From positions 6,475 to 70,474 of the forward strand of contig CAYYYS010000012.1 in NCBI GenBank assembly GCA_964476155.1: DNA of 64,000 bases, read 5' to 3'. This document shows positions 52,500-61,522 of the stretch, piece after piece. Position 1 is the stretch's first letter, and each line of letters opens with the position of its first letter. The notes beneath the pieces were generated by a model. It saw only the letters and a list, made by a program, of their open reading frames with translations, ran no database searches and was not told the DNA's origin. The stretch is from an uncultured Fibrobacteraceae bacterium. GTDB taxonomy: Bacteria > Krumholzibacteriota > Krumholzibacteriia > LZORAL124-64-63. The position numbers and the translations under genes were made by a program.

Positions 52500-53195
52500 A
52501 TGCACTGGTCTGCAAAGAAACTGCTCGACTGGTATTGTACCGTGCGCTGGGTAGACCCCAAGTCGGAGGGGTCGTCTGAGAGCGCACCCACCGAAGCGGG
52601 GGCGTTTCCGAACGAACCCGAGTTGGCTATCCAGAAAGAGAAGATCCGGCTGGCCAAGATCGATCCCGAAACATTCGATTTCTTTTATGTGCACTACTAC
52701 CACCGGATCTTCAGTTTCTGTTATGGGCGGACCCGGCATCGAGACGTGGCGGAAGACCTGACATCCGAGACCTTCACGAAGGCGCTCGACAACATCGGTA
52801 AATACCGCTGGTCCGGAGTGAGTATCGGAGCCTGGCTCTACAGGATCGCCGCAAACGAGATCAAGGGGTACTACAGGACCAGGGCCCGGCGACCCGAAGC
52901 AGAGATACCGACCAACGTTCTGGGCGAGGATCTGCTGGTGGGCAACGAACCGAGCCCGGAACGAAGAGTGGAATTGGCGCAGGAGCGGGCCAAGCTCGCT
53001 GAATACGCGTCGCGACTCGATCTCGACGAACAGAACTATCTGAACCTGCGCTTTCGCGAGGGTTTGTTGATCCGGGAGATCGCGGCGATCGCAGGGAAAC
53101 CCGAAGGATCCATCGCCGCACGAATACACCGAAGTCTTGTCAAGATGCAGAAGATGGGGGAAGAGGAAGCGGAGCAAGGTAATGAGAACCGTTAG
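52500..53195 (+). CDS. ECF-type RNA polymerase sigma-70 factor
   Basis: RBS GGGAGA. Region 2 ...FYVHYYHRIFSFCYGRTRHRDVAEDLTSETFTKAL.... Region 4 ...LNLRFREGLLIREIAAIAGKPEGSIAARIHRSL. Confidence 0.85.
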   Translation: MHWSAKKLLDWYCTVRWVDPKSEGSSESAPTEAGAFPNEPELAIQKEKIRLAKIDPETFDFFYVHYYHRIFSFCYGRTRHRDVAEDLTSETFTKALDNIGKYRWSGVSIGAWLYRIAANEIKGYYRTRARRPEAEIPTNVLGEDLLVGNEPSPERRVELAQERAKLAEYASRLDLDEQNYLNLRFREGLLIREIAAIAGKPEGSIAARIHRSLVKMQKMGEEEAEQGNENR

Positions 53196-53895
53196 CGACA
53201 TGGAGCAGAGACTGCGGGCCACATCCGTGGATCCCGGCGTTCGACAGGAACACTTCGACGCTTTGCGCGCCGAGCTGCAGTCTCGTATGCGCACACGTCG
53301 ATATCGACCGCTGTTTGTGGCGGCTGCTTCGATTGTCTTCATATGCCTGGTGACGTTCCAGGATCAGCCGCTGGAGAGCTTCAACTATCGGCTCGACTAC
53401 TTCGCGGGCGAGGAAAATTCAATTTATTCGTTCATGTCCCACAGGGATGCGTCAACGTCGTGGGGATTTTCCAAATCTGTCGGAGATCTCGAGGCATATG
53501 AACGAGCGCCTATGACCCCGGAAGAGATCGCCCACCGAATACACAAAACTGAAATCAGCCAGGCCATGTTCGAGGCCGGACTCCTCGAGCCGACAAGAGC
53601 ATATGGGCACACCTGGAAAGGACAAACGACGTATTCTGTAATCTTTACAGGTGAATCCGGAGGGCTCGAATTGCAATACACCTCATATATAGATGATATC
53701 ATCCACCCCGAACATACCGACTTCATGGTCAATCATTATGGCGATATCTACATGGCGGCCTTCCGGGGAGAGCTTTCGCCATACGCTTCACAGGTTATTG
53801 CCCATGATAGCCGCGAGTTCATCCTTCACGGCTGGCGTCACGAGGATCCCGTTTACGGCGAAGTCATTATCTGGACAACCCAAGATTTTAACTAA
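53182..53895 (+). CDS. Putative anti-sigma factor-like membrane protein (single TM, periplasmic domain)
   Basis: Overlaps the sigma stop by 14 nt. TM YRPLFVAAASIVFICLVTF. 170-aa periplasmic region with no recognisable domain. Confidence 0.5.
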   Translation: MRTVSDMEQRLRATSVDPGVRQEHFDALRAELQSRMRTRRYRPLFVAAASIVFICLVTFQDQPLESFNYRLDYFAGEENSIYSFMSHRDASTSWGFSKSVGDLEAYERAPMTPEEIAHRIHKTEISQAMFEAGLLEPTRAYGHTWKGQTTYSVIFTGESGGLELQYTSYIDDIIHPEHTDFMVNHYGDIYMAAFRGELSPYASQVIAHDSREFILHGWRHEDPVYGEVIIWTTQDFN

Positions 53896-55351
53896 CAAAA
53901 GTCGATTTCAGGAAGTCGAGGCTCCGCGGGTTGCGTGCCAGGAGCTCTACGTACATGCGCAGGGTTTCCGCCTGGCCGGTCCGCACCGTGGTGCAAACGG
54001 AATCCACCGCTTCCGGCTTCATTCCCCCCCGCTCCCAAGATTCGGCCAACACCGAGAAACAAGCCGAGCAGAGTCGACACGCCCAGCAATCCAAACAGTG
54101 TTCGCCGAATGATTGCTTGAAGCGACTCCAGAGGACTTCCACAGCCTCCAGGTCGAGACCTTCGCTCACGTGACCGATGATCAGCCCGTCTCCCACCCGC
54201 TCACACGGTTGATAGGCCCCATCGGCACGCACGTGCAGGCGACGTTGGCCGGGCCGGCAGCAACCGCCTGGTGAGATCGCGTCGCCCAGCGTCTCGCGGA
54301 AACGATGATAGAAGGAAACCAGTCCATCGTCGAAAAGAGCAGCCAAAATGGGGCCGGGAGTCCGACCGGCCACACGGGTATCGACATAACGCTGTCGAGC
54401 TGCGAGCAGATCGTCACGAAAACGACCCTTGTCTTCCGTCGTGATGCCGATATCGCCCGGATTGATCCCGGTGAGGTCGACGATGCTGGCGCCAACAGAC
54501 GGCGCCTCTTTGATTCCCGCCTTCCGGTAGGGCGGAAAGTCCGCAAAGTAGGTGTCGACACGCTCAACCTCTGTGGGCGGCGCCAGGGTTACCTGGAAGC
54601 GCAACTGCTCGTGGGCGCGCGATGAAACGGCCAGGAGTCGGCCTATTCCCGCTTCGACTTCGGCATGTGACGGGCCTCCGCCCCGATGAGATCTATGTCG
54701 GTCATGAATGTCCGTGGGGCCGTCAAGACTGATCTGCAGATGGACGCCCTCGGTCACGATGAAAGCGCAGACCTCTTCACTGAGCAGGGTGCCGTTCGTG
54801 TCGATTATGAAGCGGTAGTCGTCGCACGGTCCCTCTCGACGCACCAGATCGACGATCTCGCGGATCAGATCGAACTCGAGAAGAGGTTCACCGCCGTAGA
54901 ACGAGATGGACGGTGTTTCCACATCGCGGCTGCGCGTCAGAAACTCGCGCACGGCCTTGCGTGCCACACTCGGTGACATCCGTTCATCCTGGTGAGATCG
55001 AATCCAGCCCAACTCATGGCCGTGGGGACAATATCCGCACCGCAGGTTGCATTGCTCGCTCACCGAGAGCGTAAGCTGCCCGACCTGGCCGTCGTACCCA
55101 TTCACATCGTGGCAGGCCGGGCATGTGTCGAGGGCCGTTGGTCGGTGAGACAGGAAGAGATTGTGGGCCTCGCGAGCTTCGGCGATTTCACGGTGGGCCG
55201 CCTGCAGGTCTTCGGCCGAAACCCCGGCACCGGCAGGACCGCCAAGCGCGACGGCCATGGCCGAATCGACGGAGATCACATCGCCCGAGTTTACATCATA
55301 GGCATATCGATCTTCATCATGGTCGAAAACGAAGCAAAAAGCGTCTGGCAT
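53888..55351 (-). CDS. Radical SAM / SPASM-domain peptide-modifying enzyme with N-terminal RRE-like extension (putative RiPP maturase)
   Basis: CNLRCGYCPH (CxxxCxxC) about 100 aa from the N-terminus. C-terminal SPASM Cys clusters CCRPG...C...CLDCWACRLCSACFS. Located 12 nt downstream of the Cys-rich precursor ORF. ATG at 55351 (track uses TTG at 55360). Confidence 0.9.
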   Translation of the reverse strand: MPDAFCFVFDHDEDRYAYDVNSGDVISVDSAMAVALGGPAGAGVSAEDLQAAHREIAEAREAHNLFLSHRPTALDTCPACHDVNGYDGQVGQLTLSVSEQCNLRCGYCPHGHELGWIRSHQDERMSPSVARKAVREFLTRSRDVETPSISFYGGEPLLEFDLIREIVDLVRREGPCDDYRFIIDTNGTLLSEEVCAFIVTEGVHLQISLDGPTDIHDRHRSHRGGGPSHAEVEAGIGRLLAVSSRAHEQLRFQVTLAPPTEVERVDTYFADFPPYRKAGIKEAPSVGASIVDLTGINPGDIGITTEDKGRFRDDLLAARQRYVDTRVAGRTPGPILAALFDDGLVSFYHRFRETLGDAISPGGCCRPGQRRLHVRADGAYQPCERVGDGLIIGHVSEGLDLEAVEVLWSRFKQSFGEHCLDCWACRLCSACFSVLAESWERGGMKPEAVDSVCTTVRTGQAETLRMYVELLARNPRSLDFLKSTFVS

Positions 55352-55363
55352 GTCTACCAAGGT

Positions 55364-55561
55364 CTACGTTGGTACGGTGGATTCGAACATCCTGGTATCT
55401 ACTTCATTCCCGGGCGTTCGAGTCGGCGAAGCGGCGGCTTGATCCCCCGTCCTGCAGTTGCAGTTGCATGAGCAGGTGCAGCTGCATGCCATTGCGTTGG
55501 GCTGTTCTTCGGTTGCCGTAGTGGGCTGATGGCCCGGATCCACTTTTTTGTACATAGTCAT
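55364..55561 (-). CDS. Candidate RiPP precursor peptide with alternating Cys core CSCTCSCNCNC
   Basis: MTMYKKVDPGHQPTTATEEQPNAMA-CSCTCSCNCNC-RTGDQAAASPTRTPGNEVDTRMFESTVPT, 65 aa. GGGAG RBS is placed 6 nt before the second ATG (55555). Preceded by an AT-rich promoter region. Confidence 0.6.
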   Translation of the reverse strand: MTMYKKVDPGHQPTTATEEQPNAMACSCTCSCNCNCRTGDQAAASPTRTPGNEVDTRMFESTVPT

Positions 55562-55810
55562 CTCCCTTTTTGTATGGGATATACATCCGTCACTATTGAA
55601 GATACCAAATCTTCCGCGCTTTTTTATTGATTTTTTTAATATTCAATGCAAAGAAATCACTCCCCCGGCATTGTAGCGGATGGACGGAGTAGCGTTGTGG
55701 GGGGTTCTCGATCAATAATCGATTTCTACAACGGCAAGGGCGTGCAAGTTAGCTAAATATTTCCTCCCGCTACAGTCGGGGGACGCCGTATTAGTTTCGC
55801 TCTTTGGGCG

Positions 55811-55842
55811 AGGGGCGACGAGCGTCTCCCGGCGTTTTTTTT
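55811..55842 (+). terminator. Orphan plus-strand hairpin + T8 terminator-like element (no annotated plus-strand gene upstream)
   Basis: gggcgacg-ag-cgtctccc with 7 of 8 bp paired, then ggcgTTTTTTTT. Lies in the 310-bp AT-rich gap between the methyltransferase and the precursor gene. Confidence 0.3.
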
Positions 55843-55869
55843 AGGGAAGAGTCGAATCGAGCCGGATAA

Positions 55870-56529
55870 TTAGCGACGGCGGGCTGCCAGCTCCACATCG
55901 CCGTGCCGATGCTCCGGTCCATCTCCGTGTCGATGCACGGGGCCCAAGGTCTCGTCGTGGCTCAGGATCTCCCACCCACGCAGCAGATCACGGATTTCCC
56001 GACGCGCCAGATAGGTGCGGTAGTCACCGTCCGGACTGCGGAAGCTATGGCGACCAGCCGGCGTCCACGTGTCCCGGTAGGTCTCGTACGAGGGATCGTC
56101 CACGTGCCAGGCGACCAGCAGAAGGATCGCGCCAGGGGCGGTCCAGCGCTGGAAACGATACAGGAGGCCGGCGATCTCGGCGCGTGAGAGGATCTGTAGC
56201 AGACCGAAGCATAGCACCGTGTCGAAGGGCGCCGACGGCTCGTAAGCCAGGACCCCTCCCCGCCACAGTTCGAGATCGAGACCCGCCTCGCGAGCCCGGC
56301 GCTCGGCCTGGGCGATGGACGCGGCTGACGGGTCGATCCCGGTCACACGCATGCCGGCCGCGGCCAGGGGCAGCGCGTTGCGTCCCTGTCCCACACCCAG
56401 GTCCAGCACGCGACCGCCAGGCTCGAGGTCTCCGGCGAAGCGCGTCAGGAGCGGCGCGGGTTCGGAGCCGAAATAATAGGTGTTGTCGCCATAGGCTTTG
56501 TCGTAATCGTCGGTGCGTTTATCCGCCAT
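55870..56529 (-). CDS. Class I SAM-dependent methyltransferase (TehB/TPMT-like)
   Basis: ...GRVLDLGVGQGRNALPLAAAGMRVTGIDPS... motif I. 219 aa. Co-directional and immediately upstream of the precursor/rSAM pair. Confidence 0.8.
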   Translation of the reverse strand: MADKRTDDYDKAYGDNTYYFGSEPAPLLTRFAGDLEPGGRVLDLGVGQGRNALPLAAAGMRVTGIDPSAASIAQAERRAREAGLDLELWRGGVLAYEPSAPFDTVLCFGLLQILSRAEIAGLLYRFQRWTAPGAILLLVAWHVDDPSYETYRDTWTPAGRHSFRSPDGDYRTYLARREIRDLLRGWEILSHDETLGPVHRHGDGPEHRHGDVELAARRR

Positions 56530-56535
56530 GGGACG

Positions 56536-57123
56536 TCAATCGCCATAGATGGTTTTTACGTCGCCCCAGGCCCGGGGCTCGTCTTCGGCGGCCGAGTTGA
56601 TGGTGAAGGAGGGGAGGTCGTCGGCGCCACAGGGGCTACAGGGGTGCACCATACCGACATCCGAGGCGTAGCCGGGATTGTCCGGCAGGTCGAGGGAGCC
56701 TGGAACCGGTTTGATGTAGAAACGGATGGAATCTTCGTTGAAGGTCAAGACTGAGATCGAGAGCAGCGGAATCACATTGGCGCTGTTGGGCGTGAGGGGA
56801 CTCAGGGCCGTCCCGACCTGGTATTCGGGGCTCGAAGCGAAGTTGAGAGCGCTCTCGCCCAGAATCTGCCAGGTCGCCGACATGTTCTCCTCGCCCGCGA
56901 CCTCGATATAGGCTTGCCAGCCCAGCGCCTGGGATTGCGAAGGATTGACGACGCACAGATAGATCGTCTGCTGCGTGAAGGCGGCGAGGTCGATATTGCC
57001 GCCACACGTGGACTCGGATTCGTTATCCGCGCAGAAACACATGACGTCGGACTGGGCCACCGCGACGGTGGCGAAGACGAGAACGAACAGGCATGTCGAA
57101 AGCACGCCATATACACGATTCAT
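56536..57123 (-). CDS. Secreted Cys-containing domain protein with C-terminal ...AWGDVKTIYGD tail (paralog family B)
   Basis: Signal peptide MNRVYGVLSTCLFVLVFATVAVA (RBS AAGGGAA). Domain QSDVMCFCADNESESTCGGNIDL... is paralogous to the N-terminus of 57277..59595. Confidence 0.75.
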   Translation of the reverse strand: MNRVYGVLSTCLFVLVFATVAVAQSDVMCFCADNESESTCGGNIDLAAFTQQTIYLCVVNPSQSQALGWQAYIEVAGEENMSATWQILGESALNFASSPEYQVGTALSPLTPNSANVIPLLSISVLTFNEDSIRFYIKPVPGSLDLPDNPGYASDVGMVHPCSPCGADDLPSFTINSAAEDEPRAWGDVKTIYGD

Positions 57124-57276
57124 CACGGTATTCCCTTCTGCGATCTGCGAGCGGAGCCCCGGTCGGTTTCTCACGACCGGGGCGAGTCCTTGTATCAGGA
57201 TAAAAGAACCGCCTGCAGGAAACAAGGCCCAGCCGTGGGGCCGGGCCTGTTTGTGGGCTGTTTGCTGCCCTGGCTA

Positions 57277-59595
57277 CTACTTCACCAGGGTCAATTTGGC
57301 CATGGTGTCGGTCCGGACACCATCCAACAGGAGTACGGCGAAGTAGGTTCCGCCGGCGAGTTCGCGACCGGTGTCGTCCAGGCCGCGCCAGGTCTCTGTG
57401 TAAGTCCCTGCCGTTTGTGTGCCCAGATCAAATGCGCGCACGCGGCGGCCACGCAGATCGTAGATCTCGAGGCCGAGCCGACCGGGTAGGCTGCTGGTCA
57501 GCTTGATCTCGGTGCTGGGGTTGAAGGGGTTCGGGTGACTGGTGATGGCGTGGGCGACGGGTCGGTCGGGAGCCGCGGTCAACGCGTCCGGGGAGCGGAA
57601 GGTCACCAGTAAGGGTTCATCGCCTACTTCCAGTACGACCGAGGACTCGTCCTGCATGGACATCACGACCACGCGGTTTTGGTGGGGTAGGTAGATCTGG
57701 GGGTCGGTTTTGTCTGGTAGGGCCGTGCTGTCCCAGTTCAAGACGACCGGGCCGGGTTCCGGGGCTGTTAAGGTGGCGGTCCAGTCGTAGGGCTCCTCGA
57801 TGGGGGCGCGGATGTCGGTGAGGAAGGATGAGCCTACGGCGAGGTCCCATTCGGGGTGTTCGAAGCGGAGTTTGGCCGCGCTTCGGGGGACTGGGGACGC
57901 GGGGGGTTCTGGGAGGTCGTAGCGGGCGTCGAAGGATTCCCGGGCTTGGGAGTTGAATCCCAGGGAGACGCCTTCGGAGCGGCCGTCTACAGAAAAGGCC
58001 AGGCGCCAGGCGTCTGGAGAGTCGAAATCGTCTGTCTTGGGGGTTGTGCCTGGGGGGATTACGGTGGCGTAGTTGAACTTGAGCTGGATGTAACTATCGT
58101 GACAGGCCACCCAGTATCCATACCATGTGTCGAATGTCACTGCATCTACATATGACTCCGAGGCTGAATCGTAGCCGAAGGGGAAGGCCGAGACCCAGCC
58201 TGCGCTCACGGCTTCGCCCCAGGTACGTATATCGTATCCGGATCGTGTCACCATAACACCGTCAAGATCCGTCGAAATCCATAACGGATAGCTAACCATG
58301 TTCCAACCGGGGGTCAGCGGAACGTTGACCTCACTGGTATTCAAGGTTCCACCAGGGATATCCCAGGTGTACGCCTGTGTCGCACCAATCCAATAGGCCT
58401 TGAGCAGGTCGGCCGCATCGCCGAGCTCAAGGAGTCTGTATCCGTTGCCGGGATCATGATCGTAAATGAAAGTCGACCACGCCGCGTTTTGCAGAAACGC
58501 CTGGGAGATAGTCCCGGGACTTGGCGGGATCATCGGCAGGCCGGCCAAAGACCAGCCCGCCGGCAGGTCCCGGGACTGGGGCTCCGGCCCGACCATACCA
58601 GGGGGCCCCACCCACAACTCCAGAGTGCGTGGGATGCCGGGAGTCGGCATATAGTTGAAGCTGTAGCCGATCATACGGACATCCACGGTCCAATCGTCGA
58701 CGGGATCATGGAGATACAAGCCCCAGCCATCATCGAACAAGTCATCCGGCGCGAAATCGAGAGTCATTTGCTGGCTGCGATCGGTCAGGACTTCGAAGGA
58801 CCAGACCTTGAGGTTGTCCAATGGATTATAGGGCTCGCGGTAATCGGTCATGAAGCGGTCGCCCAGGGGTGATGCCCATTCGGGATGCGGGAAATAGAGG
58901 GTCACGTATTCGCTTGGCTGTATCGGCGGTTCGGGGGCATCAAAGGGGGGATCATAAATGTCGGTCGCATTGGTGATCGCGCCGGCGATATTGCCGTTGT
59001 CGTCAAGATTGTCGACATGAGCGCTTAGCTCGACGGAGAACTGCGGAAAGGACGGAGGGGGATCTTCGCCGTTGATGGTGAAGACTGGGATGTCGGGATC
59101 GCCGGAGCAGGTTACGCAAGGAATAGAGAAGCCTGCTTCCGGAAAATAGCCCGGGCTGTCAGGGTAAGACGACGAATCCGGTACTCGCCGAACATGGATA
59201 TTGATTGGGGCGGACGTGTCGATCACCGTAAGCGCTATTTGCAACAACACCATACTTCCATCTGCGTTGGGATGCATCGGGCTCGCGCCAAGTCCGACGA
59301 TATAATTGGAGCCATATCCGATATTGAGGCCTCCGCCAAGAACCTCCCAATCACCGAAGTAGGTCACCGTCGTTACGATCTCGACTTGGGCCTCCCAGGC
59401 CGAAACCTGATAAGCACTTGGATTAGTAATGAGCAGATACAGATTCTGCGTGTGGTACATGTCGACATCCACATTTCCGCCACAAGAGGAATAGCTCTCG
59501 CTATCGGTGCATACACACATCACATCCTGCTGGGCAACGGCGACACCGAAAGCCACGAGACTGAACAGGCAAATAGTGGCTACTAGATTTCGCAT
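57277..59595 (-). CDS. Large secreted protein: N-terminal family-B Cys domain, internal repeats, C-terminal T9SS/FlgD-Ig-like sorting domain
   Basis: Signal peptide MRNLVATICLFSLVAFGVAVA. N-terminal domain QQDVMCVCTDSESYSSCGGNVDV.... CTD ...HPNPFNPSTEIKLTSSLPGRLGLEIYDLRGRRVRAF...GTYFAVLLLDGVRTDTMAKLTLVK. Confidence 0.8.
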   Translation of the reverse strand: MRNLVATICLFSLVAFGVAVAQQDVMCVCTDSESYSSCGGNVDVDMYHTQNLYLLITNPSAYQVSAWEAQVEIVTTVTYFGDWEVLGGGLNIGYGSNYIVGLGASPMHPNADGSMVLLQIALTVIDTSAPINIHVRRVPDSSSYPDSPGYFPEAGFSIPCVTCSGDPDIPVFTINGEDPPPSFPQFSVELSAHVDNLDDNGNIAGAITNATDIYDPPFDAPEPPIQPSEYVTLYFPHPEWASPLGDRFMTDYREPYNPLDNLKVWSFEVLTDRSQQMTLDFAPDDLFDDGWGLYLHDPVDDWTVDVRMIGYSFNYMPTPGIPRTLELWVGPPGMVGPEPQSRDLPAGWSLAGLPMIPPSPGTISQAFLQNAAWSTFIYDHDPGNGYRLLELGDAADLLKAYWIGATQAYTWDIPGGTLNTSEVNVPLTPGWNMVSYPLWISTDLDGVMVTRSGYDIRTWGEAVSAGWVSAFPFGYDSASESYVDAVTFDTWYGYWVACHDSYIQLKFNYATVIPPGTTPKTDDFDSPDAWRLAFSVDGRSEGVSLGFNSQARESFDARYDLPEPPASPVPRSAAKLRFEHPEWDLAVGSSFLTDIRAPIEEPYDWTATLTAPEPGPVVLNWDSTALPDKTDPQIYLPHQNRVVVMSMQDESSVVLEVGDEPLLVTFRSPDALTAAPDRPVAHAITSHPNPFNPSTEIKLTSSLPGRLGLEIYDLRGRRVRAFDLGTQTAGTYTETWRGLDDTGRELAGGTYFAVLLLDGVRTDTMAKLTLVK

Positions 59596-60210: not shown

Positions 60211-60496
60211 GTCGATAATCCGCTTATACGTTTTGGGCGATCCGCGTCTGATTATAGCAGATCTGTGGATTATATGCGTATCGATTTACCTAATAATGGG
60301 GGTGTTTGTACGGGAGGCATTTCTGTGCTTGGTTGGAGGCTTTCGGTGCGCATAAATCATACCCGCGTGCGCCTGTAACTTATAACATAGCATGATGTTA
60401 GCGCTTGCGCTGCTGGTGTTTTTCGGCTATATTGTCTCCATCGAATGCATCCGTTTCGACCTCCCGCGAAACGCTCGTTTTCTGGGAGGTTTTTCT

Positions 60497-61522
60497 ATGT
60501 CAGCCAGCGAAATCCATGCTCGTCTTCAAGCGGCTTTGAGTGAACTTCAGCGGGCGGAGAAGAACGCCGTTCTGTTGTTCGGCGAGATTCTTCGGCGCAA
60601 GTTGTATCGGGATCTTGGTTACTCATCTATTCAGGTTTATGCCGCCGAAGCGCTCGGGTTCTCACCGAGTAAGACTTCGCAGTTTGTGCGACTGGCGGGG
60701 GCGCTCGAAGAGCTGCCGCAGCTGCGTCGATCGGTGGCGGCCGGTGAGTTGGGGTGGACCAAGGCGCGGGAGGTGGCCAAGGTGGCTACGCCCGAAAGTG
60801 AAGAGAGATGGATCGCCGAGGCGGAGCGGTCGAGTAGTCGCAAGTTGGAGCAAACGGTGCGGGCAACACGCAAGCGGGCGCGCCTGGCGCCGCAAGTTGC
60901 GGAGCTGCCTGCGCTGGACCTGGGCGAGCCATCGCCAGCGCTGCCCACGGACGCTCCGCTCTCGGTGAGTACAAAACTCACGGCCGAACAGTACGCCCGC
61001 CACGAGGCTCTGTTCGAGACGATCCGCAAACGAGGCAACCGAAAAAACTCGACAGTACGGGGTATGGACCGCGCCGAGTTGTTGCTCGTCGCGCTGAACG
61101 ATCTGGCGGAGAAGCTCGCGCAAGAGCCGGAAACCAAGATCGTCTCCAGCCCGCCTTATCAAGTCGTAGTTTACACGTGTAAAAAGTGTGGCAAGTCCGA
61201 GGTGCAAACCGACCGCGGTCCAAAGCCCATATCAACTGAAGTTGTGCATTGCGACGCCGTCATCCATGAGCCTAGCCAGCCCAATCGCTCGACCATCCCG
61301 CCGAAAACCCGTCAGGCTGCCATGATCAAGGCCAACCATCGTTGCGAGACACCGGGATGCGGGCGGACACGGTTCCTGGAGGTTCATCATCGGCGTCCGC
61401 GATCGCTGGGGGGCAGCAACGAGGTGACCAACCTCCAGGTGCTATGTTCGAGTTGCCACCAGCTGGTCCATCAACGAGGACAATCGCAACCGGCACAGCA
61501 TCAATATGAGAAAACGGGGTAA
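60497..61522 (+). CDS. HNH endonuclease (DUF222-HNH type)
   Basis: RBS GGGAGG before the internal ATG. C-terminal ...CETPGCGRTRFLEVHHRRPRSLGGSNEVTNLQVLCSSCHQLVH (HNH with Zn Cys). Confidence 0.8.
   Translation: MSASEIHARLQAALSELQRAEKNAVLLFGEILRRKLYRDLGYSSIQVYAAEALGFSPSKTSQFVRLAGALEELPQLRRSVAAGELGWTKAREVAKVATPESEERWIAEAERSSSRKLEQTVRATRKRARLAPQVAELPALDLGEPSPALPTDAPLSVSTKLTAEQYARHEALFETIRKRGNRKNSTVRGMDRAELLLVALNDLAEKLAQEPETKIVSSPPYQVVVYTCKKCGKSEVQTDRGPKPISTEVVHCDAVIHEPSQPNRSTIPPKTRQAAMIKANHRCETPGCGRTRFLEVHHRRPRSLGGSNEVTNLQVLCSSCHQLVHQRGQSQPAQHQYEKTG

Follow-up and report, generated by a model that had tools for sequence, protein, structure and literature searches.

The locus examined here raises the question of what a radical-SAM (rSAM) enzyme would do with a peptide in which cysteine occupies every second position of the core, and where on that peptide the six closely spaced sulfurs might be attached. 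The initial annotation of the window (the whole 64-kb stretch of DNA that was analysed) had drawn attention to a minus-strand ORF at 55364-55561, with the core CSCTCSCNCNC set between a polar leader and a Pro/Thr-containing tail. The ORF is present with the translation MTMYKKVDPGHQPTTATEEQPNAMACSCTCSCNCNCRTGDQAAASPTRTPGNEVDTRMFESTVPT, and core, leader and tail were all found as described. The features of the gene and its product are as follows.

55364-55555 (-): precursor gene, 63 aa plus stop; alternative annotated start at 55561.
55562-55567 (-): Shine-Dalgarno-like AGGGAG, 6 nt before the second ATG (55555) and touching the first ATG.
55487-55555 (-): leader (residues 1-23), which carries the conserved motif MY.K[VI][DE]P.H.P.
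55454-55486 (-): core CSCTCSCNCNC, six Cys at i, i+2 and so on, the only Cys of the peptide.
55367-55453 (-): C-terminal tail of 29 aa, a candidate acceptor strand or follower, starting x-[ST]-G-D-Q-A and ending x-P-x.

Translation had been proposed to begin at the second Met, and both the ribosome-binding site and the relatives agree with that choice. Purine-rich GGAG-like boxes occur at the equivalent position in relatives of the gene. Since the homologues all begin at the equivalent of the second Met (MY.K in subfamily A and MIKI in subfamily B, as defined below) and the spacing of the Shine-Dalgarno-like box fits, the 63-residue form is taken as the product. The alternating six-Cys run is unique among all six frames of the 64-kb window, and 200 composition-matched random windows generated by a first-order Markov model contained a mean of 0 runs of six Cys and 0.005 runs of five. 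The peptide gave no Pfam or NCBIfam match at E<=0.1, metallothionein families included, and a word-index homologue search with the single peptide returned no match.

Homologues were therefore sought via the neighbouring rSAM gene, and the ORFs beside rSAM homologues were aligned into a profile. The profile retrieved 13 called proteins from a set of 5.8 billion, and an exhaustive phmmer search with the window peptide over 1.84 billion representatives gave only 9 matches; judged from these searches, the family is real but rare. Altogether 19 distinct homologous sequences with 5 or 6 alternating Cys were obtained, and they fall into three subfamilies.

Subfamily A (includes the window copy): 11 sequences, 6 Cys; leader MY.K[VI][DE]P.H.P; tail of 29 aa in 10 of 11, ending x-P-x.
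Subfamily B: 7 sequences, 5 Cys; leader MIKIVEPDHRP; tail of 31 aa in all 7, ending LP.I.GKR...
Subfamily C: 1 sequence, 6 Cys (CSCSCGCPCGC); leader MIERQNPGHE...; tail of 32 aa.

Every Cys of every one of the 19 members falls inside the alternating run. The leader motif M-x-K-x-V-[DE]-P-x-H-x-P is common to subfamilies A and B, where M1, P7, H9 and P11 are invariant, and is looser in C, and x-[ST]-G-D-Q-A follows the last Cys directly in all three subfamilies. The near-constant elements of the family are thus the i, i+2 register of the Cys, the leader motif, the Gly-Asp turn, the length of the tail and a Pro near the C terminus. Loss of the ORF from relatives that keep the rSAM gene was looked for in the syntenic loci (L161/L162, L163/L164, L165, L166, L167, L001, L170, L171, L172 and L173), and in 11 of 11 distinct contexts the rSAM gene proved to be directly preceded by an intact small ORF built in the same way, at rSAM identities down to 41%. 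The two genes are separated by 12 nt in the window and by 0-15 nt in the relatives, or overlap there, with a longer gap of 175 nt in L161. Pairwise divergence between precursor genes reaches a pS of 0.6-0.8, which is near saturation, at a pN of 0.3-0.45 (pN/pS 0.37-0.66), and relatives exchange TGC with TGT codons for Cys and AGC with TCN codons for Ser while the Cys themselves are kept. Because synonymous sites are near saturation and the Cys and Ser codons have been swapped, selection has acted on the protein and not on a DNA repeat. On this evidence the precursor ORF is a genuine conserved gene.

The gene that follows the precursor encodes its partner maturase.

53888-55351 (-): maturase, 487 aa, comprising an RRE-like domain, a radical-SAM core and a SPASM domain; in the frame of the precursor and 12 nt past its stop.

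The maturase has more than 1,000 homologues. Its radical-SAM motif CxxxCxxC (C101, C105 and C108), within a matched Pfam PF04055 domain, is invariant in 30 homologues, as are seven Cys of the SPASM region (C365, C383, C419, C422, C428, C431 and C453), which aligns to the SPASM domain of CteB. In a SPASM domain, seven conserved Cys serve two auxiliary [4Fe-4S] clusters. In an AF2 model of the maturase (pLDDT 92, pTM 0.90) the N terminus forms a module of three strands followed by helices, and Foldseek returned CteB as the best solved structure (E 2e-19, about 510 aligned columns). Profile comparison likewise aligns the maturase to CteB from residue 3 onwards, residues 3-100 corresponding to the N-terminal domain of CteB, which is said, from work of Grove et al. 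in 2017, to be a leader-binding RRE. The modelled N-terminal domain is accordingly described here as RRE-like, and would bind the leader. Among curated families the best full-length match is CcpM (TIGR04068) at 223.4 bits, against a cutoff of 500, followed by RumMC at 178 bits (far under its cutoff of 720), the lachnocin rSAM at 154, QhpD at 130, PapB at 123 and the SCIFF maturase at 101 bits. These best-matching families are Cys-directed maturases, and the characterised ones form thioethers.

The active site was compared by means of a catalytic-site proximity profile of six positions defined on CteB (PMC10288494). The maturase clade reads P/L-Y-D-S-E-R, and this matches neither CteB (F-F-T-S-H-Q) nor StsB (Y-T-I-S-K-L). 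A true CcpM, that of locus L004, which scores 613 bits against TIGR04068, reads V-Y-T-S-E-R, so that Y, S and E-R/K are common to it and to the maturase clade. The six residues make no distinction between sacti- and ranthi-synthases for the maturase. Judged by these residues the active site is most like the CcpM type, yet the enzyme lies outside that curated family; against TIGR04068 the enzyme of subfamily B reaches 172 bits and that of subfamily C 215 bits.

The suggestion that a RiPP-type precursor is coupled here to a SPASM radical-SAM enzyme is supported by these observations, and we consider the ORF very probably the substrate of the adjacent rSAM. Thioether formation, giving a multi-thioether peptide of the sacti or ranthi type, is the chemistry that the relatives of the enzyme make probable, and a hairpin ladder is a possible but tentative topology, proposed by analogy. 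In the scheme that we propose, the 63-aa peptide would be translated from the second ATG, a step backed by conservation, and its leader MY.KVDP.H.P would be bound by the N-terminal RRE-like domain of the maturase. By way of a 5'-deoxyadenosyl radical the enzyme would then link Cys sulfurs to acceptor carbons, producing five or six thioether bridges. Three conserved features, namely the i, i+2 Cys, the Gly-Asp turn that directly follows them and a tail of constant length, suggest that the acceptors more probably lie in this C-terminal tail than within the Cys run; a hairpin ladder would require just such donors at beta-strand spacing, a Gly-Asp turn and a length-constrained segment behind it. 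By analogy with StsA (C2-G15, C4-G13, C6-G11) a beta-hairpin ladder would result, and in many members the last Cys and the conserved Asp form a PapB-like C-x3-D pair. Neither GxGxG nor a periodic conserved acceptor pattern was found in the tails of the 19 members, and the enrichment of Ser, Thr and Asn between the Cys leaves room for local acceptors.

Several other readings of the same locus were weighed against thioether formation. The maturase might carry out a different rSAM chemistry, such as formation of formylglycine (as in anSME), epimerisation, C-methylation-independent cross-linking or S-methylation together with the neighbouring TehB-like methyltransferase. This is unlikely, though it retains some weight: anSME and the epimerase EpeE are among the structural and sequence matches of the maturase, its catalytic-site profile is unlike those of CteB and StsB, and a chalcogen-type methyltransferase is nearly always a neighbour. 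The strongest full-length family matches, however, are all thioether-forming peptide maturases, the maturase lacks the C-x-[AP]-x-R motif of anSME, and the methyltransferase gene, about 300 nt from the precursor, is absent in L165. The methyltransferase may be a tailoring enzyme or a mere neighbour.

The initial annotation had placed the acceptors within the run itself, so that each Cys would bond to a Ser, Thr or Asn beside it, at the beta or gamma carbon, and the product would be a ranthipeptide with very small local rings. Enteropeptins, for which adjacent-residue sactionine (thiomorpholine) rings have been reported, offer a precedent for rings of this kind. That the residues between the Cys are all Ser, Thr or Asn holds for the window copy (S, T, S, N, N) and does not extend to the family, in which these three residues occupy 62 of the 88 between-Cys positions of the 19 members (70%). 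This share is far above background, and the first between-Cys residue is always Ser or Thr in subfamily A, both of which favour local rings. The remaining positions, however, hold Gly (11), Arg (4), Ala (3), Val (2), Ile (2) and one each of Glu, Asp, Phe and Pro; subfamily B has Gly or Asn at its first between-Cys position and Ile, Ala or Thr at its third; and no between-Cys position is Ser, Thr or Asn in all 19 members. Since other residues are tolerated at these positions, a mechanism specific to Ser, Thr or Asn side chains cannot operate at every rung, and the proposal cannot be a general rule. Obligatory Ser/Thr/Asn acceptors were accordingly rejected, and small local rings as the structure of the product are, in our estimation, improbable.

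A peptide with six clustered Cys and an invariant His could also be a metallothionein-like or Fe-S/metal(loid)-binding peptide with free thiolates, to which the rSAM would be unrelated or accessory. Nearby lie a TehB-like methyltransferase and, together with a membrane protein, an ECF sigma factor, neighbours typical of stress modules, and the locus has no exporter or protease. We nevertheless give a metal chelator little credence. The ORF always lies within 0-15 nt of the gene for the rSAM with the RRE-like domain or overlaps it, L161 (175 nt) being the exception, and this tight, universal coupling disfavours the chelator; in addition, the peptide matches neither metallothioneins nor any other Pfam or NCBIfam family, and a conserved leader with a fixed tail is a trait of RiPP precursors and not of metallothioneins. 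An azole-type core, as in a thiopeptide or linear azole peptide with cyclodehydrated Cys and Ser/Thr, is very improbable. The cores of thiocillin and GE2270 do alternate Cys with Ser, Thr, Asn or Val, but the constant partner here is an rSAM, and across the 11 distinct contexts the conserved neighbourhood has no cyclodehydratase or dehydrogenase gene, nor does a YcaO cyclodehydratase appear in the roughly 3-4 kb of called genes inspected in each, on which ground the YcaO-type core was rejected. That the ORF is spurious, its TGC-NNN periodicity being a DNA-level repeat, is scarcely credible and was rejected too, for although it is short, belongs to no database family and drew an empty word-index search, the gene was called independently in 13 protein clusters, its protein is conserved despite saturated synonymous change, and its Cys count stays constant with differing codons.

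The surroundings of the precursor and maturase genes were examined next to those of the syntenic loci, and the neighbouring genes in the window are listed here.

52500-53195 (+): ECF-type sigma-70 factor, co-oriented with the membrane-protein gene and a neighbour in all syntenic loci.
53137-53895 (+): single-pass membrane protein, putative anti-sigma factor, convergent with the rSAM gene.
55870-56529 (-): TehB-like SAM-dependent methyltransferase, upstream of the precursor; found in the loci of subfamilies A, B and C, absent in L165.

Loci of subfamilies A, B and C share the order of one or more FlgD-Ig secreted proteins, a paralogue of about 195 aa, the TehB-like methyltransferase, the precursor and the rSAM, and continue beyond the rSAM with a convergent membrane protein of about 235 aa, the ECF sigma factor and then ubiD/ubiE. 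The cassette thus holds one chromosomal position among housekeeping genes, and the retention of this gene order at rSAM identities as low as 41% argues that the cassette has been inherited vertically within a single lineage; the record of L001 is labelled Latescibacterota. The rSAM and membrane-protein genes overlap by 8 nt at their 3' ends (53888-53895), as they also do in L161 through L167 and L170 through L172, the overlap being about 4 nt in L173. An 8-nt overlap leaves no space for a terminator, and the transcripts of the two operons must therefore overlap. Weak homologues of the membrane protein stand beside related rSAMs in unrelated contexts, in L174 (E 0.002) and in L169 (E 1e-5, together with a sigma factor). 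Such similarities hint at a functional link to the sigma system, and any link between the ECF sigma factor and the peptide system is a putative one. No protease or exporter is encoded near the cassette in the syntenic loci.

Two secreted paralogues are encoded at 56536-57225 (-) and 57277-59595 (-), and they have in common an N-terminal domain beginning with the pattern ...VAQ.DVMC.C.D.ES.S.CGGN.D... The longer of them ends in a FlgD-Ig/T9SS-type sorting domain. In all related loci homologues precede the cassette. Farther along, at 60392-61522 (+), the AIM24 and FlgD-Ig genes are separated by a 376-aa ORF whose C terminus (...HHRRPRSLGGSNEVTNLQVLCSSCHQLVH), to judge from its sequence, looks like an HNH nuclease. 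AIM24 is followed directly by the gene of about 195 aa in relatives such as L161 and L163, and the 376-aa ORF may therefore have been inserted here.

The intergenic region upstream of the precursor contains a conserved structured element, whose positions in the window and in the relatives are given below.

55762-55836 (core 55775-55833), strand uncertain: two-helix structured element, upstream of the precursor and conserved.
L161: 2352-2426.
L163: 2516-2590.
L165: 2522-2593.
L166: 2525-2593.
L167: 2519-2593.
L170: 3705-3773.
L171: 3700-3774.
L172: 3699-3773.
L001: 3504-3571.
L173: 3043-3105.

By nhmmer, this element of about 60-75 nt was found upstream of every precursor gene, in a single copy per locus and nowhere else in the window. 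Its two helices covary (P1 of 12-13 bp, P2 of 4-8 bp), it has an invariant loop C(C)CTCGCCC, and Rfam has no match in 53000-57500. In 9 of 9 loci tested it folds more stably on the strand opposite to the precursor (-29 to -41 versus -23 to -35 kcal/mol), and a T-run follows it on that opposite strand in the window and in two relatives. In those three loci the element thereby resembles an intrinsic terminator that would act on transcripts running antisense to the precursor and rSAM genes. Conserved blocks also occur closer to the precursor, at 55646-55707 (-), and comprise an ECF-like (G)GAAC-N17-CGTC (55707-55683), a TACAAT box (55675-55670) and GATTTCTTTGCAT (55658-55646), the last resembling the Bacteroidota-type TAnnTTTG -7 box. 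A sigma-70 consensus scan of the intergenic region upstream of the precursor detected no promoter. A search for the ECF-like GGAAC-N17-CGTC box ahead of the neighbouring sigma gene did not find it, and autoregulation by this sigma factor is for that reason unsupported.

The missing protease and transporter are atypical for secreted sactipeptides. Because neither is encoded nearby and the cassette sits among housekeeping genes beside an ECF sigma factor and a membrane protein, an intracellular role is possible, and, speculatively, the product may act intracellularly or be regulated by envelope stress. In its widest form our reading would be that of a vertically inherited, lineage-wide module of Latescibacterota-like bacteria, as opposed to a sporadic antibiotic cluster, placed between quinone-biosynthesis genes and the ECF sigma factor with its membrane protein and making an intracellular peptide that is either the densest known thioether ladder, of five or six contiguous rungs, or the carrier of a new Cys-directed rSAM modification, that serves as a redox or metal cofactor or as an ECF signal, and that is possibly under antisense or structured-RNA control; this combination as a whole is a long shot, which we put forward as speculation.

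Small ORFs with closely spaced Cys also accompany related rSAM enzymes. Beside sister rSAMs of 38-46% identity, L002 (5486-5695, +) encodes a peptide with ...LCECGCVEP...HWVLNG and L169 (6125-6346, -) one with ...PCECKCKRG...YWDING; both have a Pro-rich leader, CEC[GK]C and a C-terminal [HY]W[VD][LI]NG, and to judge from these common motifs they are likely a second uncatalogued precursor family. Firmicute CcpM and lachnocin-like loci contain peptides with CTCSFQC, CNCMAVCNIGCAC and CACNCRC. In Clostridia, L006 (3594-3752, +) encodes MKKTLKKIGNKNIKNYAVTLACACNCRCSERSQYNHYNSQVVAGYN, with a four-fold alternating Cys core, next to a lachnocin-like rSAM whose 325 bits are below the cutoff of 550, and as read from this ORF the CxCxCxC design exists in Firmicutes too. 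Since related rSAM loci carry such CxC-bearing small ORFs, CxC-type donors are a theme of this enzyme branch, and the window family is the extreme form of it.

Literature searches on the related maturases, on alternating cysteine and on Latescibacter rSAM or RiPP found no description of the precursor family. The precursor is the founding member of an uncurated family within a known class, the rSAM RiPPs, and is not categorically new, Cys-rich precursors beside RRE-rSAM-SPASM enzymes being a large and actively mined class. If the prediction of multiple thioethers holds, no rSAM maturase would be known to act on a longer uninterrupted CxC donor array, and the peptide would offer a small system in which to study how a single active site places five or six close thioethers in order. 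The family also gives a handle on the CcpM-like SPASM branch, and a lineage-fixed chromosomal cassette that has no export or protease genes may indicate that such peptides work in cell physiology (as a cofactor, in stress or in signalling) and not as antibiotics.

Among known systems the closest is CcpM/CLI_3235 ('Clo7bot'; TIGR04068 and TIGR04065; for example SacP23 of Paenibacillus polymyxa), the best curated family for the maturase over its full length. In that system too a short Cys-rich CxC precursor is encoded directly upstream of the rSAM, and the catalytic-site Y, S and E-R are common to the maturase clade. The differences are nonetheless considerable, the maturase falling under the family cutoff with about 24% identity. 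Against the peptide model TIGR04065 (cutoff 26 bits), the window peptide and members of subfamilies A and B gave no match at E<=10, whereas Firmicute peptides of L004, L085 and L086 score 30-35 bits. The precursor described here has a strict (Cx)4-5C run, its locus has no ACP-like, protease or ABC transporter gene, and its hosts are uncultured Latescibacterota-like bacteria, in contrast to the Firmicute hosts of CcpM. SacP23, a CLI_3235 peptide, has antimicrobial activity but no solved structure, and the chemistry of CcpM is itself unsolved (PMC10731318). The activity of SacP23 is the only functional datum for this branch of enzymes.

The best mechanistic analogues are StsA/StsB and BlaA/BlaB, which combine a CxCxC donor motif with an experimentally demonstrated nested S-C-alpha hairpin ladder. 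The three links of StsA named above are made by StsB on a CxCxCx4GxGxG core, and the hairpin sactipeptide BlaA has two rungs where StsA has three (PMC10288494). The alternating pattern had been thought unlike that of any described RiPP class, a view that does not stand beside the CxCxC donors characterised in StsA and BlaA (PMC10288494) and the CxC-rich precursors that accompany the related CcpM and lachnocin-like maturases. StsB differs from the maturase in being MftC-like with a separate RRE protein, the RRE-like domain being fused here, and MftC was absent among the best 25 family matches of the maturase listed. The GxGxG acceptors of StsA, four residues past the last Cys, are absent from the window family, for which five or six rungs would be expected against the three of StsA.

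Ruminococcin C and its maturase RumMC (NF035951) represent the second-best maturase family. In RumC a C-x-C donor pair forms nested sactionines, but this peptide, a bacteriocin secreted by Firmicutes, forms a double hairpin and has its Cys in two separate pairs. SCIFF and its maturase CteB (TIGR03974; PDB 5WGG and 5WHY) have a comparable succession of RRE (RRE-like in the maturase), rSAM and SPASM domains and a precursor with six Cys; the Cys of SCIFF do not alternate, however, and CteB has about 21% identity to the maturase and a catalytic-site profile unlike its P, Y, D, S, E, R. The maturase also matches PapB of the freyrasin system (PapA/PapB; NF047865), and a PapA-like C-x3-D pair, made of the last Cys and x-[ST]-G-D, occurs throughout subfamilies B and C and in 5 of the 11 sequences of subfamily A. 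There is only one such pair per peptide here, and unlike in PapA no Asp stands at that distance from any of the other Cys. Finally, QhpD, which acts on QhpC, the small subunit of quinohemoprotein amine dehydrogenase, aligns to nearly the full length of the maturase. Its precursor is unrelated and no dehydrogenase subunit genes lie near the cassette, yet the QhpC/QhpD system shows that a Cys peptide cross-linked by an rSAM enzyme can remain intracellular, within a protein complex.
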